A stretch of DNA of 21,511 nt from Candidatus Zixiibacteriota bacterium (GTDB taxonomy: Bacteria > Zixibacteria > MSB-5A5 > CAIYYT01). Every line of letters begins with the position of its first letter. Position 1 is the stretch's first letter. The stretch covers positions 1 to 21,511 of the forward strand of contig JBECKX010000123.1 of assembly GCA_040235515.1 (NCBI GenBank), written 5' to 3'. The notes under the pieces are model-generated. The model did not search any database, had not been told where the DNA came from, and saw only the letters and a program-made list of their open reading frames with translations. A program made the translations under genes and the position numbers. Below are positions 8,315-19,294 of this stretch, piece after piece.

Positions 8315-8992
8315 TCACCAAAATAGTGATTTAGTGATCATTTTCAAGAAGCGAAACAAATCGGCTGCCGGATTGATGAAGCTGCGGCTATCGTTGTAGA
8401 TCGTTCGAACCGGTACACTCCTGATCGAATAGCCGGCCCGGGCGGCACGGATCAGCAGCTCCGGTTCAAGGTCATACTTGTCCGAGCTAAGATCAATTTC
8501 GCGTAGCAGCCTGGTCGGGATGAATCGGAAGCCGGATTGGCTGTCGCTGAGCCTGACCGTGCTGAAGATTGAGGCTACGAAAGATGAGAGAGAGTTGGAG
8601 ACTTTGCGTGGGAATGGCATCGTTGGATCGAGCGGGCGCGTTCCGACAGCCACGGTGCAAGAGGGGTTCTCTGACTTGAGGGCCGCGTCTATCAGTGAGG
8701 TTATCTCGCGTGGGTCGTGCTGGAGGTCGGCATCAAGGGTTACCAGGCCGACGAAGTCATCCTCCAGAACGCGGCCAAATCCTGTCTTGAGCGCAGCACC
8801 CTTCCCCCTGTTCCGGTTGTGGCGTATGACAATTGCTCCGGCTGCAGCAGCGATCGAAGCGGTATGGTCGCTGGAGCCGTCATCTACAACGATGATTGTC
8901 GCGCCGGGACAGGTTTCCCCTATCTCGCGGCAGAGCTGCGCGATTGTTTGAGCTGCATTGAATGCCGGGATAACGATTGCAATTCGTTCCAT
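8315..8992 (-). CDS. Family 2 glycosyltransferase, DPM1-like (polyprenol-phosphate sugar synthase-like)
   Basis: IVIPAFN, VVDDGSSD, NRGKGAAL, LDADLQHDP and DSQSGFR motifs. Confidence 0.9.
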   Translation of the reverse strand: MERIAIVIPAFNAAQTIAQLCREIGETCPGATIIVVDDGSSDHTASIAAAAGAIVIRHNRNRGKGAALKTGFGRVLEDDFVGLVTLDADLQHDPREITSLIDAALKSENPSCTVAVGTRPLDPTMPFPRKVSNSLSSFVASIFSTVRLSDSQSGFRFIPTRLLREIDLSSDKYDLEPELLIRAARAGYSIRSVPVRTIYNDSRSFINPAADLFRFLKMITKSLFW

Positions 8993-12908: not shown

Positions 12909-13802
12909 TTGTTTAAGAGATTGTCAATGAGCACAAGGATTACGGCAATCTGCGCCACCCTGCTTCTTGCAGTTTCGCTGTACCACGGTCCGATTGCGAG
13001 CGCAGCCCCACAGGCGCCATTTGAAATCAGCATCCAGGATGTGGCATCCGCCAAGCTGGGAAACAACGTTCAGATCGCTATCACTCAGGAATCGGGCACC
13101 GAGACATACGGGGAATTCAAGTTCGTGGTCGCATTCGATCCGGAGTACCTGGAGTTTCTGGGTGCGGAGACGGGCTATGTGACTGGATTCTGCCAGTGGG
13201 ATCGATTCGAGTACAATCTCCTCCTCTGCGACAGTTGCGACTGGCAGCTGGTGGAGATTTCAGGAGTAGCGGATGACCCGGGTATCGCCGGCGCGCCGAT
13301 CTGTTTCAGCGACTTCGGTGACATTGCGGTGCTGCAATTCAAGATCCTGCCCGACACGACTCATGCCGGTGATTATGCGATGGTCAATTTCTACTGGCAA
13401 GACTGCGAATCGAACACGACGAAATCGGTGGCGTCCGATACCACCTGGTATGGCAAATTCGCCTACGACTACTTCGGCAACGATATCACCGGCGATGATC
13501 CCAATTTCGGCGGCGTCCAGTCCGGTTGCATCGTCCCTGACGGCGATGTGCCGATTCGTGCGATCAACACGCATAATGGTGGTGTTCAGATCAGGGAGGA
13601 TTTCGGCGTCTACGGCGACATGAATGCGGACGGCAGATTTAACATCAGCGATATCAGTTACCTGATCAACTACATCTTCGCCGGTGGAAGCGCCCCGAAG
13701 GACTACCTGCACGGCGACTACGACGGCGACGGGATCACCTCAATTACAGATGCCGTGTTCCTGATGAACTACCTGTTCATGCTCCTGGGGCTGGGCGGTT
13801 AA
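12909..13802 (+). CDS. Secreted protein: signal peptide + cohesin-like beta-sandwich + C-terminal dockerin-like duplicated Ca-binding repeat
   Basis: Signal peptide ending ASA-AP. Cohesin-like strands VQIAI, FKFVVAFDPEYLEF, IAVLQFKI. Dockerin repeats GDMNADGRFNISDISYLINYIF and GDYDGDGITSITDAVFLMNYLF. GGAG SD before TTG; alternative ATG at 12927. Confidence 0.8.
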   Translation: MFKRLSMSTRITAICATLLLAVSLYHGPIASAAPQAPFEISIQDVASAKLGNNVQIAITQESGTETYGEFKFVVAFDPEYLEFLGAETGYVTGFCQWDRFEYNLLLCDSCDWQLVEISGVADDPGIAGAPICFSDFGDIAVLQFKILPDTTHAGDYAMVNFYWQDCESNTTKSVASDTTWYGKFAYDYFGNDITGDDPNFGGVQSGCIVPDGDVPIRAINTHNGGVQIREDFGVYGDMNADGRFNISDISYLINYIFAGGSAPKDYLHGDYDGDGITSITDAVFLMNYLFMLLGLGG

Positions 13803-13908: not shown

Positions 13909-14913
13909 TCAGTCGGTTACTTCGTCTTCCTCGACCTGTTTGAGCGACAGGTGTTCTTTCTTCAGGTAGTAGAGCCCGGCGGCTGTAATGGTCAGGTACT
14001 GGGTTGCCCACATGACGATACTGCAAGCGCCGGCGATATCTGCATGAACATCGTAAAGGCTTAAGCTGAGCACTGTCAGGTATTGGTATGGGCCGATGAA
14101 CCCGGGGGCGTTCGGAATCATGATTCCCACAGACACAACAGCGAGGACCACGAAGGAGGCGTCGATCGGCAGCCGCAGGCCGAATGCCAGGAATATCAGG
14201 TAGTTGGAGAGCGCCATCACGATCCAGAGCAGAGCCGATTGCGCCGTGATCTTGAGTACCGCGCGAAAGTCGGAAAGCACCTCGAGCCCGGAAGCGAACT
14301 TCACGAGTATCTCATTTCCCACTTCCTGGATTTTCTCCGGAAAGATGTGGAGCACTTTGTTGAGGGCGCGCAGCGTGGCATCGGTCTTCACTTTCAGTAG
14401 CGTCAGCACGAAGACCGCGAAGAGTGTCAGCGCCAGAAAGATCCAGCCGGCGGTCTTGAGGTGTCGCAGGTCACTGGCTGCGGAACTCGGGAATTCCTTG
14501 AAGAGAAGGATGACCACGAAGAGCACCAACAAGGTGATCAGGTCGAATACACGCTCGACGAAGGTAGTCGCCATGGCGGCGGAACGCGAGATATCCTCAA
14601 TCTTGCCGAGGGAAAGCGGTCGCGCAAACTCACCGAGGCGTGCGGGCAGGATATTCGAGGCCATGAAGCCGATCATGGTGGCGGCATAGAGACCGTAGAA
14701 ACTACATTTCTTGATCGGGCGCACCATCACGCCCCAGCGCCAGGCTCTGAGAATCATGGCGATAAAAATCGACGCGACATTGGGAATCAACCACCAGTAG
14801 TTCGCCTTCTTGATCGCACCGATCACTTCGCTCCACTCGATTTTATCGACGAAGAGATAGAGGAAGAGCAACGCGACAATCATTCCGAAGATGACCAGCA
14901 GTTTCTTACCCAT
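13909..14913 (-). CDS. UPF0104 / lysylphosphatidylglycerol-synthase TM (flippase-like) membrane protein
   Basis: Multi-TM; LRAWRW, NILPARLGEFAR, ERVFD and IPNAPGFIG motifs. Start MGKKLL at 14913 with GAGG SD; overlaps the GT4 stop. Confidence 0.88.
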   Translation of the reverse strand: MGKKLLVIFGMIVALLFLYLFVDKIEWSEVIGAIKKANYWWLIPNVASIFIAMILRAWRWGVMVRPIKKCSFYGLYAATMIGFMASNILPARLGEFARPLSLGKIEDISRSAAMATTFVERVFDLITLLVLFVVILLFKEFPSSAASDLRHLKTAGWIFLALTLFAVFVLTLLKVKTDATLRALNKVLHIFPEKIQEVGNEILVKFASGLEVLSDFRAVLKITAQSALLWIVMALSNYLIFLAFGLRLPIDASFVVLAVVSVGIMIPNAPGFIGPYQYLTVLSLSLYDVHADIAGACSIVMWATQYLTITAAGLYYLKKEHLSLKQVEEDEVTD

Positions 14914-16030
14914 GCTGCCTCCACTCCTCGACGGCCCGCTGCATCGATTCAAAAGACCCCCTGGCACAGGAATCCCAGGTGAAACGCTCGGCCCACTTGA
15001 GCGCACCGGCGCAGAGGTCGCGGAACAGTTGCTGATCGGTCAGCACGCGGACTATGGCATCGGCGAGCTGGTCAATCTGTCCGAATTCGTAGAGCAAGCC
15101 GGAATGGCCGGGATTCACCGAATCACGCAAGCCGGGTGAGTTGGCTGCGACGACGGGTGTCCCGCAGGCGTTGGCTTCGATATTGGTGATCCCCCACCCT
15201 TCCTTGGGTGATGGATAGATCGAGACGTGCGAGCGACGCAGGTACTCCATCTTGGTGTCGGAGTCAACGAACCCGGGGAATTCGACCGCATCCTCGATCC
15301 CGAGCGAGCGTGCCTGCTGCTTGAGCGACTCGAGATAGTCGCCGTCGCCGAGGAGCGACAAACGGGCGTTGGGCACGCGCTCGCGCACGCGCGGCAGCGC
15401 GGAGAGGATGTGGTGGACGGCCTTGTATTTTTTCATTCGGCCAAGATAGAGAATCGTGGGTTGTTCGAACCTGTTGTTTAGATCACCCGGTGTGAAGCTC
15501 GCGTGGTCGATACCGCATTCGGCGACATCGATCATCTGTGGCTTGATGCCACGGGAGATGAGGTCAGTCCGGGTCGACTGGCTGATGGCGAGGAACCGGG
15601 CGCTACTGTAGACATGGGGGATCGGTTGTTCTGCGAGGTAGACGTAGCTTGCTGCGATCGCGTTGACCTCCTGGTAGATCGTCTTGCCGAACAGATGCGG
15701 AATAACGGCCAGGAACGGGTAGTTGAAAAACATCGGCAGATACGACGGAATCTTGTTGATATCTTCCACGATCAGGTCATAGGGCTTCTCTTCGAGCAGG
15801 TGTTTGACAAAGAATGGGGAGCGGAAGTTGAAGGTTTGTCGTCCGCCGCAACGTCTGACTTCGAAACCGTCGATGACTTCCCGATCAAGGGCGCCCGGAT
15901 AGGATGAACACGCGAGGGTGACTTCGTGGCCCCAACTGACGACACGCTTTAGAATCTCTTCAAGGTGAACCTCCGCTCCGCCCGCCAGCGGATTAGTCAA
16001 GTCCTGCCAATTGACCGCAAGGATCCTCAA
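14906..16030 (-). CDS. Family 4 glycosyltransferase (GT-B)
   Basis: NWQDLTNPLAGGAEVH, YLGRMKKYK and EGWGITNIEANACGTPVV (EX7E) motifs. Confidence 0.93.
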   Translation of the reverse strand: MRILAVNWQDLTNPLAGGAEVHLEEILKRVVSWGHEVTLACSSYPGALDREVIDGFEVRRCGGRQTFNFRSPFFVKHLLEEKPYDLIVEDINKIPSYLPMFFNYPFLAVIPHLFGKTIYQEVNAIAASYVYLAEQPIPHVYSSARFLAISQSTRTDLISRGIKPQMIDVAECGIDHASFTPGDLNNRFEQPTILYLGRMKKYKAVHHILSALPRVRERVPNARLSLLGDGDYLESLKQQARSLGIEDAVEFPGFVDSDTKMEYLRRSHVSIYPSPKEGWGITNIEANACGTPVVAANSPGLRDSVNPGHSGLLYEFGQIDQLADAIVRVLTDQQLFRDLCAGALKWAERFTWDSCARGSFESMQRAVEEWRQHG

Positions 16031-16063
16031 AATGATCTGCCTCGCCCTGTGCTTTCTCGGACG

Positions 16064-18625
16064 TTAGTTCGTGTCTCCGGGCAGGTCCATCTGTCGGACT
16101 TTCACACTGCCGGAAGTTGTATCGAGACCGCGGAGATTCTTCAGTTCCCCAAATGCGGCGATTGCGTCGGTGTCTTCAGGGTTGTTTTCTATCCAGTTGC
16201 CGAGGACCGTTTCGATGGAGTCGAAGGCGCTATCCTGATAGAGGTAGCTGAGCAGCTGCCGGAATGCGTCCTCATAATTCGGGTCTTTATCGAGCTGCTT
16301 CTGAAGCACGCGATAGGAGTCATCCTTATGCCCCTTGCGGCGCAAATCGGATGCGAGGGTCAGCCAGAGTCGGCCCTTGTCGATTTCGACCGGTGCAGCC
16401 TCAAGCACTTCCTCGGCGAGGTGTAACGAGTCCATATCGGCGTAAATCTGCATCAGGAGCGCGTAGTTGCGCCACTCTGACGGTACGACTTCAATCGATT
16501 TCTTTGCCAGCTCGATGGCCCGTTCGTCATCCCCCTGGCGGTGCAGCACGTCGGCCGTGTATATGAACCCTGCCGCGTAGTTCTGCGTTAATCGTGCCGC
16601 GTTTTCGTCCTTGTAAACCGCATCATCCGCAACACCACGGTAACGGAATTCGTTCATGTAGAAGTTGTAGGTAGCATCCACGTCGATCAGCTCATTGCCG
16701 CGGTCCTTCTTCAGGCGCATCATCATTCCGGACATTTCAAGGTGGTCCTCGATTGAACTACCCCGGTAACGGCGATTGTCCTCCGAGACGGTCACAGCGA
16801 ACTCGATCGGAACTTTCCAGGCGTTGGTTTCTATGATGTTGTCGATCATCATATCCTGGATGCGAATGATACTGCCGTCAGGCAAGCGCTGGTGACGCAA
16901 CGCCTCAATCTGGGCGTCGCTCAGGCTGATCGGAACCCCCATCTCATTCTTCAACTGCTTGATATACCAATCGGTATTGAGGAGCGAGAGGTTGGCGATA
17001 CGCACGTCGGTACGAACGCCGTAAACCTCCTGCAGGCACCAAACCGGAAATGTATCATTATCGCCATTCGTGAAGACTACGGCATTCGAGTCGGCGGACA
17101 CGAGCAGGTTATAGGCATAGTCCCACGGAATGTAGTTGTTCGACCGATCCGCCTTGTAATAGTTTGCTTTCAGCGCGAACACTGGCAAGACCAGGAACAC
17201 CAGCAGCCCATACACCATGGTTCGTCGCCCTCCCCCGTTCTGCAGGAACTTGTAGACCATATCCCAGAGCGCCATCACGCCGAGACCGATCGCGAGGCCG
17301 AAAAGGATGAAGCCGGGTTGGAAGAAGTAGTCTCGATCTCGCACTTCCAGGTGACAATCATCGTTTGGTATCAGCCCCTGCATCGTCCCATCAGCGAAGT
17401 TCATGTATAGCACGAGTCCCACCGTTGCAGCCAGGACCATCAGGAAGAATGGCACCCCCTTCTTCCATTTGCGCCAGCTCGATTCCACCATCCCGAGCAA
17501 TCCGAGAGGAAACAGCGTAAGAATAAAGATCGTCCCGCTGATGCCGTACTGCTCCTCGAAGAAGCTCCAGAACCCCATGCGCGGGTGGCGACCGAATTGG
17601 TTGGCGAGCTGTCCCCGCCGGGTGAACATACGCTCAACCATCGAGGTCTGGCCATATTGCCGGCGCTCGAGGAAGTCGTCGAATTTGTCCAGACTGGTCG
17701 GGGCGTTTTCGTTGATCGCCGGGCGTTCCGCTGCCCGAATCGGGATATAGAGCTGCGCCGTAAAGGCGGTGGCGGATGCAATCATCATAAAGAATGGCAC
17801 GATCAGGTTGGCACGCTTGTTCGACACCAGGTAGGCGACCACGAGAATCGCAGTCCAGACGGCGCCAATCCAGATGAATTTCCAGAGGGACATTACCGGC
17901 ACCAGGAGCACCGCACAGGAGATCCAGAAGAATGGATTTTTGCGCAGACCCTCATCCAGCAGGAGCATCATCAACATGATCATCGGCATGACGAGGTAGA
18001 CTGTCAGGTGGATCGCAGTTGAGAGCACACCGAGGAAGAAGATCAGGATCAGGTATTTTTGAGCCTGTCGAGTTCCACGGCATTCGGCCCACCGTAGCGA
18101 GAGCCAGATGAGCAACGTAATCAGCAGCATCGAGAGACCGTAGACCTCTGCCTCTACGGCAGAGCTCCAGTTTGTGAGGGAGAATGCCATGAGCAGCGAA
18201 CCGATCACGCCGGCGGCATACATCCCGACACGTCGCGGCAGATCGGCATCGCCGTCGAACCAATCACGGATCAGGCGAACGACGATGAAATAGCCGAACA
18301 TCGATGCGAAAGAAGTGCTGAGTGCCGAGAGCAGATTCACCCGAAAACCGATATCCTCGGCAACCGGGAGGAGACTGAAGAGCCTGCCGATCACTACGAA
18401 CAGGGGCGTCCCGGGAGGATGGGGAACACCCAGGATGTAGGAACACGCTACGAACTCACCGCAGTCCCAGAACGAGAAGGTTCTCTGCACGGTCATCAGG
18501 TAGATGATCGAGGTAAAGAGAAGCACCCCGAGCCCGATCCAGAGGTTGACCCTGTCGTATGGTTGATCGATCTGAACTAAGTTGTTTTCTTTCTCTTTAC
18601 CGAACAAGCGATCCTCCTCGGACAT
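16064..18625 (-). CDS. DUF2723 / TMEM260-like polytopic GT-C glycosyltransferase with C-terminal TPR-like helices
   Basis: SFWDCGEF, GVPHPPGTPLF, AVEAEVY, REVR-type EVRDRDYFF, FTNGDNDTFP and NLSLLNTDWY; many TM segments; helical repeat tail (AIELAKKSIEVVP, QKQLDKDPNY). Confidence 0.88.
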   Translation of the reverse strand: MSEEDRLFGKEKENNLVQIDQPYDRVNLWIGLGVLLFTSIIYLMTVQRTFSFWDCGEFVACSYILGVPHPPGTPLFVVIGRLFSLLPVAEDIGFRVNLLSALSTSFASMFGYFIVVRLIRDWFDGDADLPRRVGMYAAGVIGSLLMAFSLTNWSSAVEAEVYGLSMLLITLLIWLSLRWAECRGTRQAQKYLILIFFLGVLSTAIHLTVYLVMPMIMLMMLLLDEGLRKNPFFWISCAVLLVPVMSLWKFIWIGAVWTAILVVAYLVSNKRANLIVPFFMMIASATAFTAQLYIPIRAAERPAINENAPTSLDKFDDFLERRQYGQTSMVERMFTRRGQLANQFGRHPRMGFWSFFEEQYGISGTIFILTLFPLGLLGMVESSWRKWKKGVPFFLMVLAATVGLVLYMNFADGTMQGLIPNDDCHLEVRDRDYFFQPGFILFGLAIGLGVMALWDMVYKFLQNGGGRRTMVYGLLVFLVLPVFALKANYYKADRSNNYIPWDYAYNLLVSADSNAVVFTNGDNDTFPVWCLQEVYGVRTDVRIANLSLLNTDWYIKQLKNEMGVPISLSDAQIEALRHQRLPDGSIIRIQDMMIDNIIETNAWKVPIEFAVTVSEDNRRYRGSSIEDHLEMSGMMMRLKKDRGNELIDVDATYNFYMNEFRYRGVADDAVYKDENAARLTQNYAAGFIYTADVLHRQGDDERAIELAKKSIEVVPSEWRNYALLMQIYADMDSLHLAEEVLEAAPVEIDKGRLWLTLASDLRRKGHKDDSYRVLQKQLDKDPNYEDAFRQLLSYLYQDSAFDSIETVLGNWIENNPEDTDAIAAFGELKNLRGLDTTSGSVKVRQMDLPGDTN

Positions 18626-18732
18626 CCGATATCTAATGTCTTCTTTGGAGATATACCAACATCCGCCCCGCTGCGATTAAACTTTGTGAACCTTCTGGGG
18701 CGAATCGATTTACCAGAAATAAGTTGGCGCGG

Positions 18733-18761
18733 AATATAAGAGTTAGCGGGAAGATTTCCAA
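18733..18761 (-). promoter_or_regulatory. Sigma70-type promoter for the DUF2723-GT4-flippase operon
   Basis: Minus strand TTGGAA-N17-TATATT about 110 nt upstream of the ATG at 18625. Confidence 0.55.
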
Positions 18762-18877: not shown

Positions 18878-19294
18878 CTAGTTCTCCGCCTTCTGCAACT
18901 TCTTGTTGCAGGCGTCGAGTACGCCATTGACGAAACCGGATGATTCCTCGGCGGAGTACTTCTTGGCTAACTCGACCGCTTCATTGATCGCCACTTTCGA
19001 CGGCACATCGGGAAAGTAGAGCAATTCACAAATCCCGAGACGGAGGATATTCTTATCCACGACGGCAAGCCGCTCGATGTTCCAGTTGAGGGCATGCGCT
19101 CCAATGCGTTTGTCCAGCTCTTCGAGATGAGTGACGGTGCTGCGCAATAGCGTTTCCGAGAAGCGGGCGGCGTCCGGATTGAGATCTGATTCGGCGATGA
19201 GCGAAGTGCAGATCGAGTCGATCGACTCCCCTGTTGATTCGTACGCATAGAGGCACTTGAGTGCCAACTCGCGTGCTTTGGATCTTTGTCCCAT
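18878..19294 (-). CDS. nusB: Transcription antitermination factor NusB
   Basis: RSKARELA, WNIERL, DKNILR, VAINEAVELAKKY and FVNGVLD; follows ribH as usual. Confidence 0.97.
   Translation of the reverse strand: MGQRSKARELALKCLYAYESTGESIDSICTSLIAESDLNPDAARFSETLLRSTVTHLEELDKRIGAHALNWNIERLAVVDKNILRLGICELLYFPDVPSKVAINEAVELAKKYSAEESSGFVNGVLDACNKKLQKAEN

Follow-up and report, generated by a model that had tools for sequence, protein, structure and literature searches.

We report that three genes in a 21,511-nucleotide stretch of Zixibacterial DNA (JBECKX010000123.1, positions 1 to 21,511; hereafter the window) form a real, conserved and previously undescribed operon, encoding a glycosyltransferase of fold class C (GT-C) related to human TMEM260, a glycosyltransferase of family 4 (GT4) and a flippase-like membrane protein. 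We tentatively propose, with a probability of roughly 0.45, that the operon O-glycosylates exported proteins at a D-(S/T)-hydrophobic sequon with a lipid-phosphate-linked sugar. The features of the unit are as follows, with residues numbered throughout in the 853-aa frame of the GT-C protein.

18761-18733, minus strand: sigma70-type promoter, TTGGAA-17 nt-TATATT, in the gap between nusB and the GT-C gene; 9/12 consensus match
16064..18625, minus strand: TMEM260-like (DUF2723) GT-C, with a membrane domain, a periplasmic Rossmann-like domain and a tetratricopeptide-repeat (TPR) tail
18464..18466, minus strand: codon of D54 (WDCGEF), aligned with human D52; donor-binding role taken from 10.64898/2026.03.17.711096
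17060..17062, minus strand: codon of D522 (NGDNDTFP), aligned with human D441; catalytic-base role taken from 10.64898/2026.03.17.711096
14906..16030, minus strand: GT4 (GT-B fold, retaining-type family), PF00534 and PF13439, a single-copy clade
13909..14913, minus strand: UPF0104/PF03706 membrane protein (MprF flippase domain, PplT), PF03706 E 3.5e-48

The three open reading frames (ORFs) run in one direction, at 16064-18625 (853 aa from ATG), 14906-16030 (374 aa, TTG start) and 13909-14913 (334 aa, from the ATG at 14913), and their coordinates agree with the co-directional order, 33-nt gap and 8-nt overlap given in a preliminary description of this DNA. That description also assigned the genes a sigma70-like promoter of their own, and the conservation of its footprint bears this out, the −10 element TATATT being invariant in 17/17 same-family loci and TTGG at −35 being kept in 16/17. 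The 9/12 match is weak alone; the region holds 11 promoter-like sites, compared with 5.0 ± 2.2 in shuffled sequences. Translation of the GT-C gene more likely starts at TTG 18607 (847 aa) than at ATG 18625, because the equivalent ATG of a same-genus relative is followed by an in-frame stop and because relatives use GGAGG followed by a TTG start; the gene caller also picked 18607.

The three-gene linkage is conserved. We ran the co-occurrence check put forward in the preliminary description on 61 genomes (this genome and 60 relatives from 16 families, which as kin are not independent). The GT4 is matched exactly once in 60 of the 61, the missing genome being 52% complete, and the flippase gene directly follows it in 60/60. 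The GT-C gene lies upstream of the GT4 gene in 54/60, in 48 directly and in 6 across a one-gene gap, which in 5 of the 6 reads as a GDP-mannose 4,6-dehydratase (Gmd)-like gene; 2 further loci stop at contig edges, and a ManC-like gene follows the operon in 4 loci. Across the phylum, the GT4 gives a single match per genome in 121/121 genomes at E ≤ 1e-60, and the trio is seen in 30/30 of the loci returned, which are the top-scoring ones. The trio was presented at the outset as a compact pathway; that it is self-contained is not supported, since in some families it heads a longer glycosylation cluster. An apparent fusion of the GT4 and flippase genes in the same-genus genome G001 proved to be a 100-N assembly gap.

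Beyond the phylum, the GT-C gene keeps other company. Among 65 metagenome loci, which were chosen by pattern, the same GT4 clade (>280 bits) adjoins the GT-C gene in 9 and the intact trio occurs in 4, while other neighbours are a more distant PF03706 protein (6), GT2-family genes (28) and GT9 genes (10). The nearest Atlas clusters of the GT-C protein are commonest in WOR-3, Eiseniibacteriota, Krumholzibacteriota, Fidelibacterota and Verrucomicrobiota. Thus, the trio is mainly Zixibacterial and the GT-C clade is wider. The GT9 gene is heptosyltransferase-like, occurs in low-GC loci (L224, L229, L231, L233, L240, L242, L245 and others) and mostly stands directly after the GT-C gene, a possible link to lipopolysaccharide (LPS). 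Four metagenome loci (L228, L251, L205 and L244) carry tandem or near-tandem TMEM260-like duplicates.

The GT-C protein is matched by PF11028 (E 8e-51; 172.8 bits, cut-off 24.2), rather than by PF10852, the Pfam family first named for it. It also matches human TMEM260 (9RQL) at E 1.5e-19 with a single sequence and 6e-33 with a profile, in agreement with the homology originally proposed, and human TMEM260 is its sole solved sequence relative apart from TPR proteins. Homologues with a source name are nearly all labelled DUF2723 proteins of Zixibacteria. An AlphaFold2 model from 113 homologues, with a predicted local distance difference test score (pLDDT) of 89.8, has the GT-C fold that had been expected, and matches GT-C enzymes at Z 20-24: yeast STT3 (Z 23.8; root-mean-square deviation 4.5, 420 aligned), ALG12 (22.0), ArnT (21.9), AglB (21.5), PglB (21.5), AftB (20.7) and, within the same range, PMT. 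TMEM260 itself is absent from the rows of the fold search. The fold scores are tied and say nothing about the acceptor.

The WDCGEF, HPPG, EAEVY and GDND motifs reported from the translation are all found in the 853-aa protein, as is the TPR-like tail (PF13428, residues 752-791). By alignment, D54, H69 and D522 correspond to human D52, H67 and D441, and all three are invariant in 113/113 homologues. In the human structure, D441 is described as the catalytic base and D52 and H67 as residues that bind the donor (bioRxiv 10.64898/2026.03.17.711096). The suggestion that the WDCGE aspartate matches the catalytic aspartate is therefore not supported: it does align with a human active-site aspartate, D52, but this one binds the donor, and the counterpart of the base is D522 of the GDND motif. 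The periplasmic tail (window:16064-16850) itself bears four D-(S/T) sequons, and the last 260 residues of the 113 homologues hold 376 sequons compared with 105 reversed motifs, although these sequences are not independent; both counts hint at self-glycosylation.

Six PF11028 genes are present in the genome. One, C205:16914-19424, is 49% identical to the window protein across the N-terminal 570 aa, carries the same active-site motifs and has no glycosylation neighbours. The full set of six motifs (FWDC[G/P]EF, HPPG, E.EVY, RxQY, RxRDY and TNGDNDTFPxW) is common to the window GT-C, the C205 paralog, three Bacteroidota DUF2723 proteins (from Parabacteroides, Prevotella and Hymenobacter, retrieved by tblastn) and one Fibrobacter protein, and is lacking in the four other, more divergent paralogs, which lie on contigs C25, C78, C174 and C218. 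A FastTree tree of 519 columns and 66 of 76 rows, the 10 partial ones left out (support values after re-rooting not used), places these four apart on long branches, and within the clade sharing the motifs it joins the Zixibacterial and Fibrobacter proteins in one subclade and the Bacteroidota proteins in another. In 14 control genomes, PF11028 is matched in one, B. thetaiotaomicron. A search with the Parabacteroides protein gave, among the matches listed, only close relatives, none of them named Porphyromonas. Downstream of the C174 paralog lie GT2, GT4 and methyltransferase-like genes. Several of the Bacteroidota "plasmid" records (L072, L073, L325 and L326) carry housekeeping genes and resemble chromosome pieces.

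The flippase-like protein is matched above cut-off by both PF03706 (165 bits, cut-off 33.4) and TIGR00374 (99.3, cut-off 43.2), confirming its assignment to UPF0104, and a structure search returned no solved sequence relative. It is predicted to be a flippase for a lipid-linked sugar; flipping has been shown for the PF03706 domain of MprF and is predicted for stand-alone members (10.1101/2022.03.11.483950; PMC5898192). The GT4 gives only generic GT4 matches in the structure search (14-26% identity), with no close solved relative, and its nearest matches in the plasmid collection, at 29-34%, come from Halobellus and three actinobacteria. As a lead, these matches may belong with mycobacterial Rv0225/MSMEG_0311. 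Rv0225/MSMEG_0311 is reported to be essential, with its substrate not known (10.1101/2023.09.11.557293).

That the acceptor is protein, as initially supposed, gains indirect backing from sequon statistics. The gene caller returned 2,920 genes, and a heuristic signal-peptide rule classed 618 of the products as exported and 1,304 as cytoplasmic. The motif D[ST][ALVIMT] occurs in predicted exported proteins 1372 times where 972 are expected, a ratio of 1.41, compared with 1.05 in cytoplasmic proteins; with repeated and paralogous segments masked, the ratios are 1.50 (962/642; bootstrap 1.35-1.66) and 1.07. Aspartate is the strongest of the 20 possible first residues (1.41; next 1.22), DSL ranks 2nd of 4,693 tripeptides, and control motifs that begin with E or N or are reversed give 0.89-1.05. 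The N-x-S/T sequon is not enriched in the proteins of this genome (0.98-1.01). Samples of 400 kb from two other Zixibacterial families give 1.47 and 1.83 for exported proteins, and 800 kb of E. coli gives 1.02 (0.75-1.28). We set aside a pooled set of other Zixibacterial loci (2.15 exported, 1.37 cytoplasmic), since orthologues recur in it. Within Zixibacteria the signal is robust, and in shape it matches that in Bacteroidota; there is some probability that it stems instead from structural preferences of the folds that Zixibacteria export. The beta-sandwich IPT domains that human TMEM260 modifies are not supported as special substrates here, three patterns of the human IPT sequon having 0 matches among the 2,920 predicted proteins. 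The D-(S/T) sequon is carried by 443/618 predicted exported proteins. Densely carrying ones, with up to 11 sequons in 315 aa and 17 in 920 aa, include C24:9215-10240, C144:3114-5960 and C199:12823-14820, and such proteins are good reporter substrates.

If the operon works as we propose, the GT4 would build or extend a lipid-linked donor in the cytoplasm, where the Gmd- and ManC-like neighbours suggest use of a GDP-sugar, and polyprenyl-phosphate mannose would be supplied by a Ppm1-like enzyme encoded elsewhere in the genome. The PF03706 protein would flip the lipid-linked sugar, and the GT-C would transfer the sugar in the periplasm to Ser/Thr, with D522 as base and an extended peptide held by the TPR/Rossmann lobe, as happens in human TMEM260. 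We predict that the donor carries mannose or a short glycan that starts with mannose. The cytoplasmic step, the flipping, the periplasmic transfer and the link between enzyme and sequon are all steps that we infer from gene content and alignment.

The Ppm1-like enzyme belongs to a second module on contig C104 (G000:C104:9317-15432; L305), with genes for a PF03706 flippase-like protein, a YfhO-like GT-C, the Ppm1-like GT2, another GT2 and a WecA-like protein. Its gene, C104:11236-11985, is the best candidate for a Ppm1 or dolichyl-phosphate mannose (DPM) synthase (E 2e-32 against the Pyrococcus-type DPM synthase 5MLZ; 43-50% to four of the five plasmid matches annotated as polyprenol monophosphomannose synthase), and it is single-copy in 59/61 genomes. 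The YfhO-like GT-C (PF09586) is matched in 57/61 genomes at E ≤ 0.001, in 37 of them above cut-off. In genomes G111 and G053, the trio starts a single run that leads, via further GT2 and GT4 genes, to the Ppm1/YfhO module. The trio thus belongs to a larger envelope glycosylation system that has at least two GT-C modules.

These results touch a known gap in the general O-glycosylation system of Bacteroidota, whose core glycan begins with mannose and whose core flippase, oligosaccharyltransferase (OTase) and ligase are described as undiscovered (PMC12871550), the OTase having eluded identification for more than 15 years (PMC12871550; 10.64898/2026.07.27.740950). The available portions of PMC10897501 and PMC12645811 contain no OTase candidate, and a review proposes seeking homologues of eukaryotic O-mannosylation enzymes (PMC12871550). 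In a wider version of our proposal, to which we assign a lower probability, the WDCGE/GDNDTFP clade would be the initiating transferase of the D-S/T system across the Fibrobacterota-Chlorobiota-Bacteroidota (FCB) group, with the operon giving the core-donor GT4 and the core flippase, and YfhO/Ppm1 forming a second GT-C step. We found no description of the operon or of bacterial TMEM260 activity, in a search that lay mostly outside subscription journals; in the portions available, a TMEM260 paper speaks merely of "distant homologs in bacteria" (PMC10214176), and the main text of the TMEM260 structure preprint does not mention bacteria (10.64898/2026.03.17.711096).

Several observations weigh against our proposal. 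With six PF11028 genes and 14 PMT_2 matches in the genome, genomics cannot assign the sequon to the window GT-C. The E. coli set is small (61 proteins), and the broad motif is not clearly raised in Bacteroidota, the positive control, where five samples give 1.02, 0.87, 0.79, 1.38 and 1.17 (pooled 1.08, 0.93-1.23; 290 exported proteins). The sole form enriched in Bacteroidota is D-S-[LIVT] (exported 1.50, 1.25-1.77; cytoplasm 0.98; 0.92, 0.44-1.43, in E. coli), a form selected on the Zixibacterial data before the controls were scored with it. Two Bacteroidales DUF2723 copies stand before genes for a polysaccharide deacetylase and queG, with neither a GT4 nor a flippase gene beside them, and the four Bacteroidota records searched yielded no close relative of this GT4 (best E 1.5e-19, over the C-terminal half only). 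GT4 enzymes are retaining and the known polyprenyl-phosphate-mannose synthases belong to GT2; the operon's GT4 is therefore unlikely to make a simple donor. The human donor-loop residues R264 and Y267, and R355, fall where the HMMER alignments give no coverage or lose register, and spacing is the one ground on which the invariant R321-x-x-Y324 and R429/R431 are plausible counterparts. In 4/60 genomes (three of one genus and the complete genome G046), the GT-C gene is unlinked from the GT4 and flippase genes. Finally, the second module has its own PF03706 gene, and its Ppm1-like gene adjoins the YfhO-like GT-C, not the window GT-C, in 49/59 genomes.

The last observations fit a division of labour in which YfhO, Ppm1 and the second flippase put the first mannose on D-S/T, and the trio does a later step, in which it either adds a sugar or joins an oligosaccharide built by the GT4 to the protein-linked core. 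The YfhO-like protein finds its plasmid-collection matches in Bacteroidota only (24% identity), YfhO-family genes occur in 4/65 metagenome loci, the two modules share a gene run in G111 and G053 and partly in G040 and G103, and the best fold matches of the window GT-C are oligosaccharyltransferases. This order of events is nonetheless unlikely in our judgement, since the activity shown for TMEM260 is Ser/Thr mannosylation and the window protein keeps the acceptor-activating aspartate and the layout of the peptide-binding lobe. The characterised YfhO of B. subtilis, moreover, is reported to glycosylate lipoteichoic acid and not protein. The published record cuts both ways: a two-step core and outer model with a ligase has been described (PMC12871550), and a preprint, which in its available portion does not mention TMEM260, predicts YfhO as the Bacteroidota OTase (10.64898/2026.07.27.740950), but the same preprint reports YfhO to be absent from P. 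gingivalis, which has the O-glycosylation system (PMC12871550; PMC10897501).

The acceptor may also not be protein, the GT4 and flippase making and exporting a glycolipid or lipid-linked sugar with which the GT-C decorates lipid A, the LPS core or a surface polysaccharide, in the manner of ArnT or GtrA/GtrB/GT-C. ArnT and AftB score as high in the fold search as protein-modifying GT-Cs, the GT9 heptosyltransferase-like gene recurs in 10/65 metagenome loci, the GT4 and flippase genes stay paired in the 4/60 genomes in which the GT-C gene has moved away, and PF03706 domains have ties to lipid flipping and occur elsewhere in fusions with GT-B domains (10.1101/2022.03.11.483950). We consider this improbable, because the sequence homology, with periplasmic lobe and TPRs included, points specifically to TMEM260 and because a proteome-wide sequon signal needs a protein-directed enzyme. 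Least probable of the readings weighed here is that the window GT-C glycosylates protein but serves narrower clients or uses a different sugar, the general D-S/T sequon being left to the C205 paralog or another GT-C. A paralog with the same motifs is indeed present in this and many related genomes, human TMEM260 is client-specific (PMC10214176), and the sugar genes nearby are not constant (Gmd, other epimerases and three types of GT2); against this, the complete genome G046, with one full-length high-scoring match among its 4 PF11028 genes, keeps an enrichment of 1.83, and an operon retained almost universally, with its promoter conserved, fits a housekeeping role.

Compared with human TMEM260 (CAZy GT117; PDB 9RQL/9RQM/9RQN), the window GT-C has the same PF11028 core, Rossmann-like luminal domain, TPR tail and D52/H67/D441 equivalents, but it is bacterial, has WDCGE in place of GDSGE, is about 150 aa longer, acts in a proteome without the IPT sequon and is encoded with a GT4 and a flippase. 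The Bacteroidota system (D-S/T-A/L/V/I/M/T, Man-initiated core, lfg locus) shares with Zixibacteria the sequon enriched in predicted exports and the DUF2723, YfhO-like and Ppm1-like genes; it differs in phylum and in placing the Bacteroidales DUF2723 gene outside a GT4/flippase operon. The YfhO family (PF09586) is likewise a GT-C family using lipid-linked donors and sometimes stands in the same gene run as the trio, but it is a separate family, located on contig C104, where the Ppm1-like gene and a second flippase accompany it. The trio follows the logic of three-component modules (archaeal AglD/UPF0104, GtrA/GtrB/GT-C and ArnC/ArnT), which combine a cytoplasmic glycosyltransferase, a flippase and a GT-C; archaeal UPF0104 genes adjoin genes for a PMT/STT3-like enzyme and an AglD-like glycosyltransferase (PMC5898192). 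It departs from them in having a GT4 rather than a GT2 as its cytoplasmic partner and a TMEM260-type GT-C with TPRs. For the Bacteroidota OTase, the locus offers a defined family of candidates whose catalytic residues are mapped, with YfhO as the published competitor, and makes this long-open question directly testable. If our proposal is correct, D-S/T O-glycosylation would extend to Zixibacteria, a human congenital-glycosylation enzyme would have functional relatives in bacteria, and an O-glycosyltransferase with a three-residue sequon would become available for glycoengineering.

Three neighbouring genes were considered in relation to the unit, and none of them belongs to it.

18878..19294, minus strand: nusB (context, outside the unit), closing the rib-nusB run often found ahead of the trio; names read from sequence
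12909..13802, plus strand: exported dockerin-domain protein (PF00404, residues 235-289) with two D-T-T sequons
8315..8992, minus strand: polyprenol-phosphate glycosyltransferase-like GT2, adjoining surE; weak DPM synthase match, E 4e-11

The convergent protein, initially called a cohesin and a conceivable substrate, has no cohesin-family match at E ≤ 0.01, and only the dockerin domain was detected. Its gene is linked to the trio in 8/11 same-family loci and 0/19 others, 443/618 exports carry the sequon and 98 proteins of the genome match it, so that it is not supported as a special substrate. The GT2 at 8315-8992, suggested in the preliminary description as a possible donor synthase, was rejected: it lies near the trio in 0/36 genomes outside its own family, and its DPM synthase match is weaker than that of the C104 gene. 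Elsewhere in the window, two tandem phenylacetate-CoA ligase/F390-synthetase-like genes (window:9957-12691) score below all NCBIfam cut-offs, and a same-genus genome has both. As read from translations, two divergent motA/motB-like stator pairs lie back to back at window:423-4396, beside a flgB-like gene at the start of the window.

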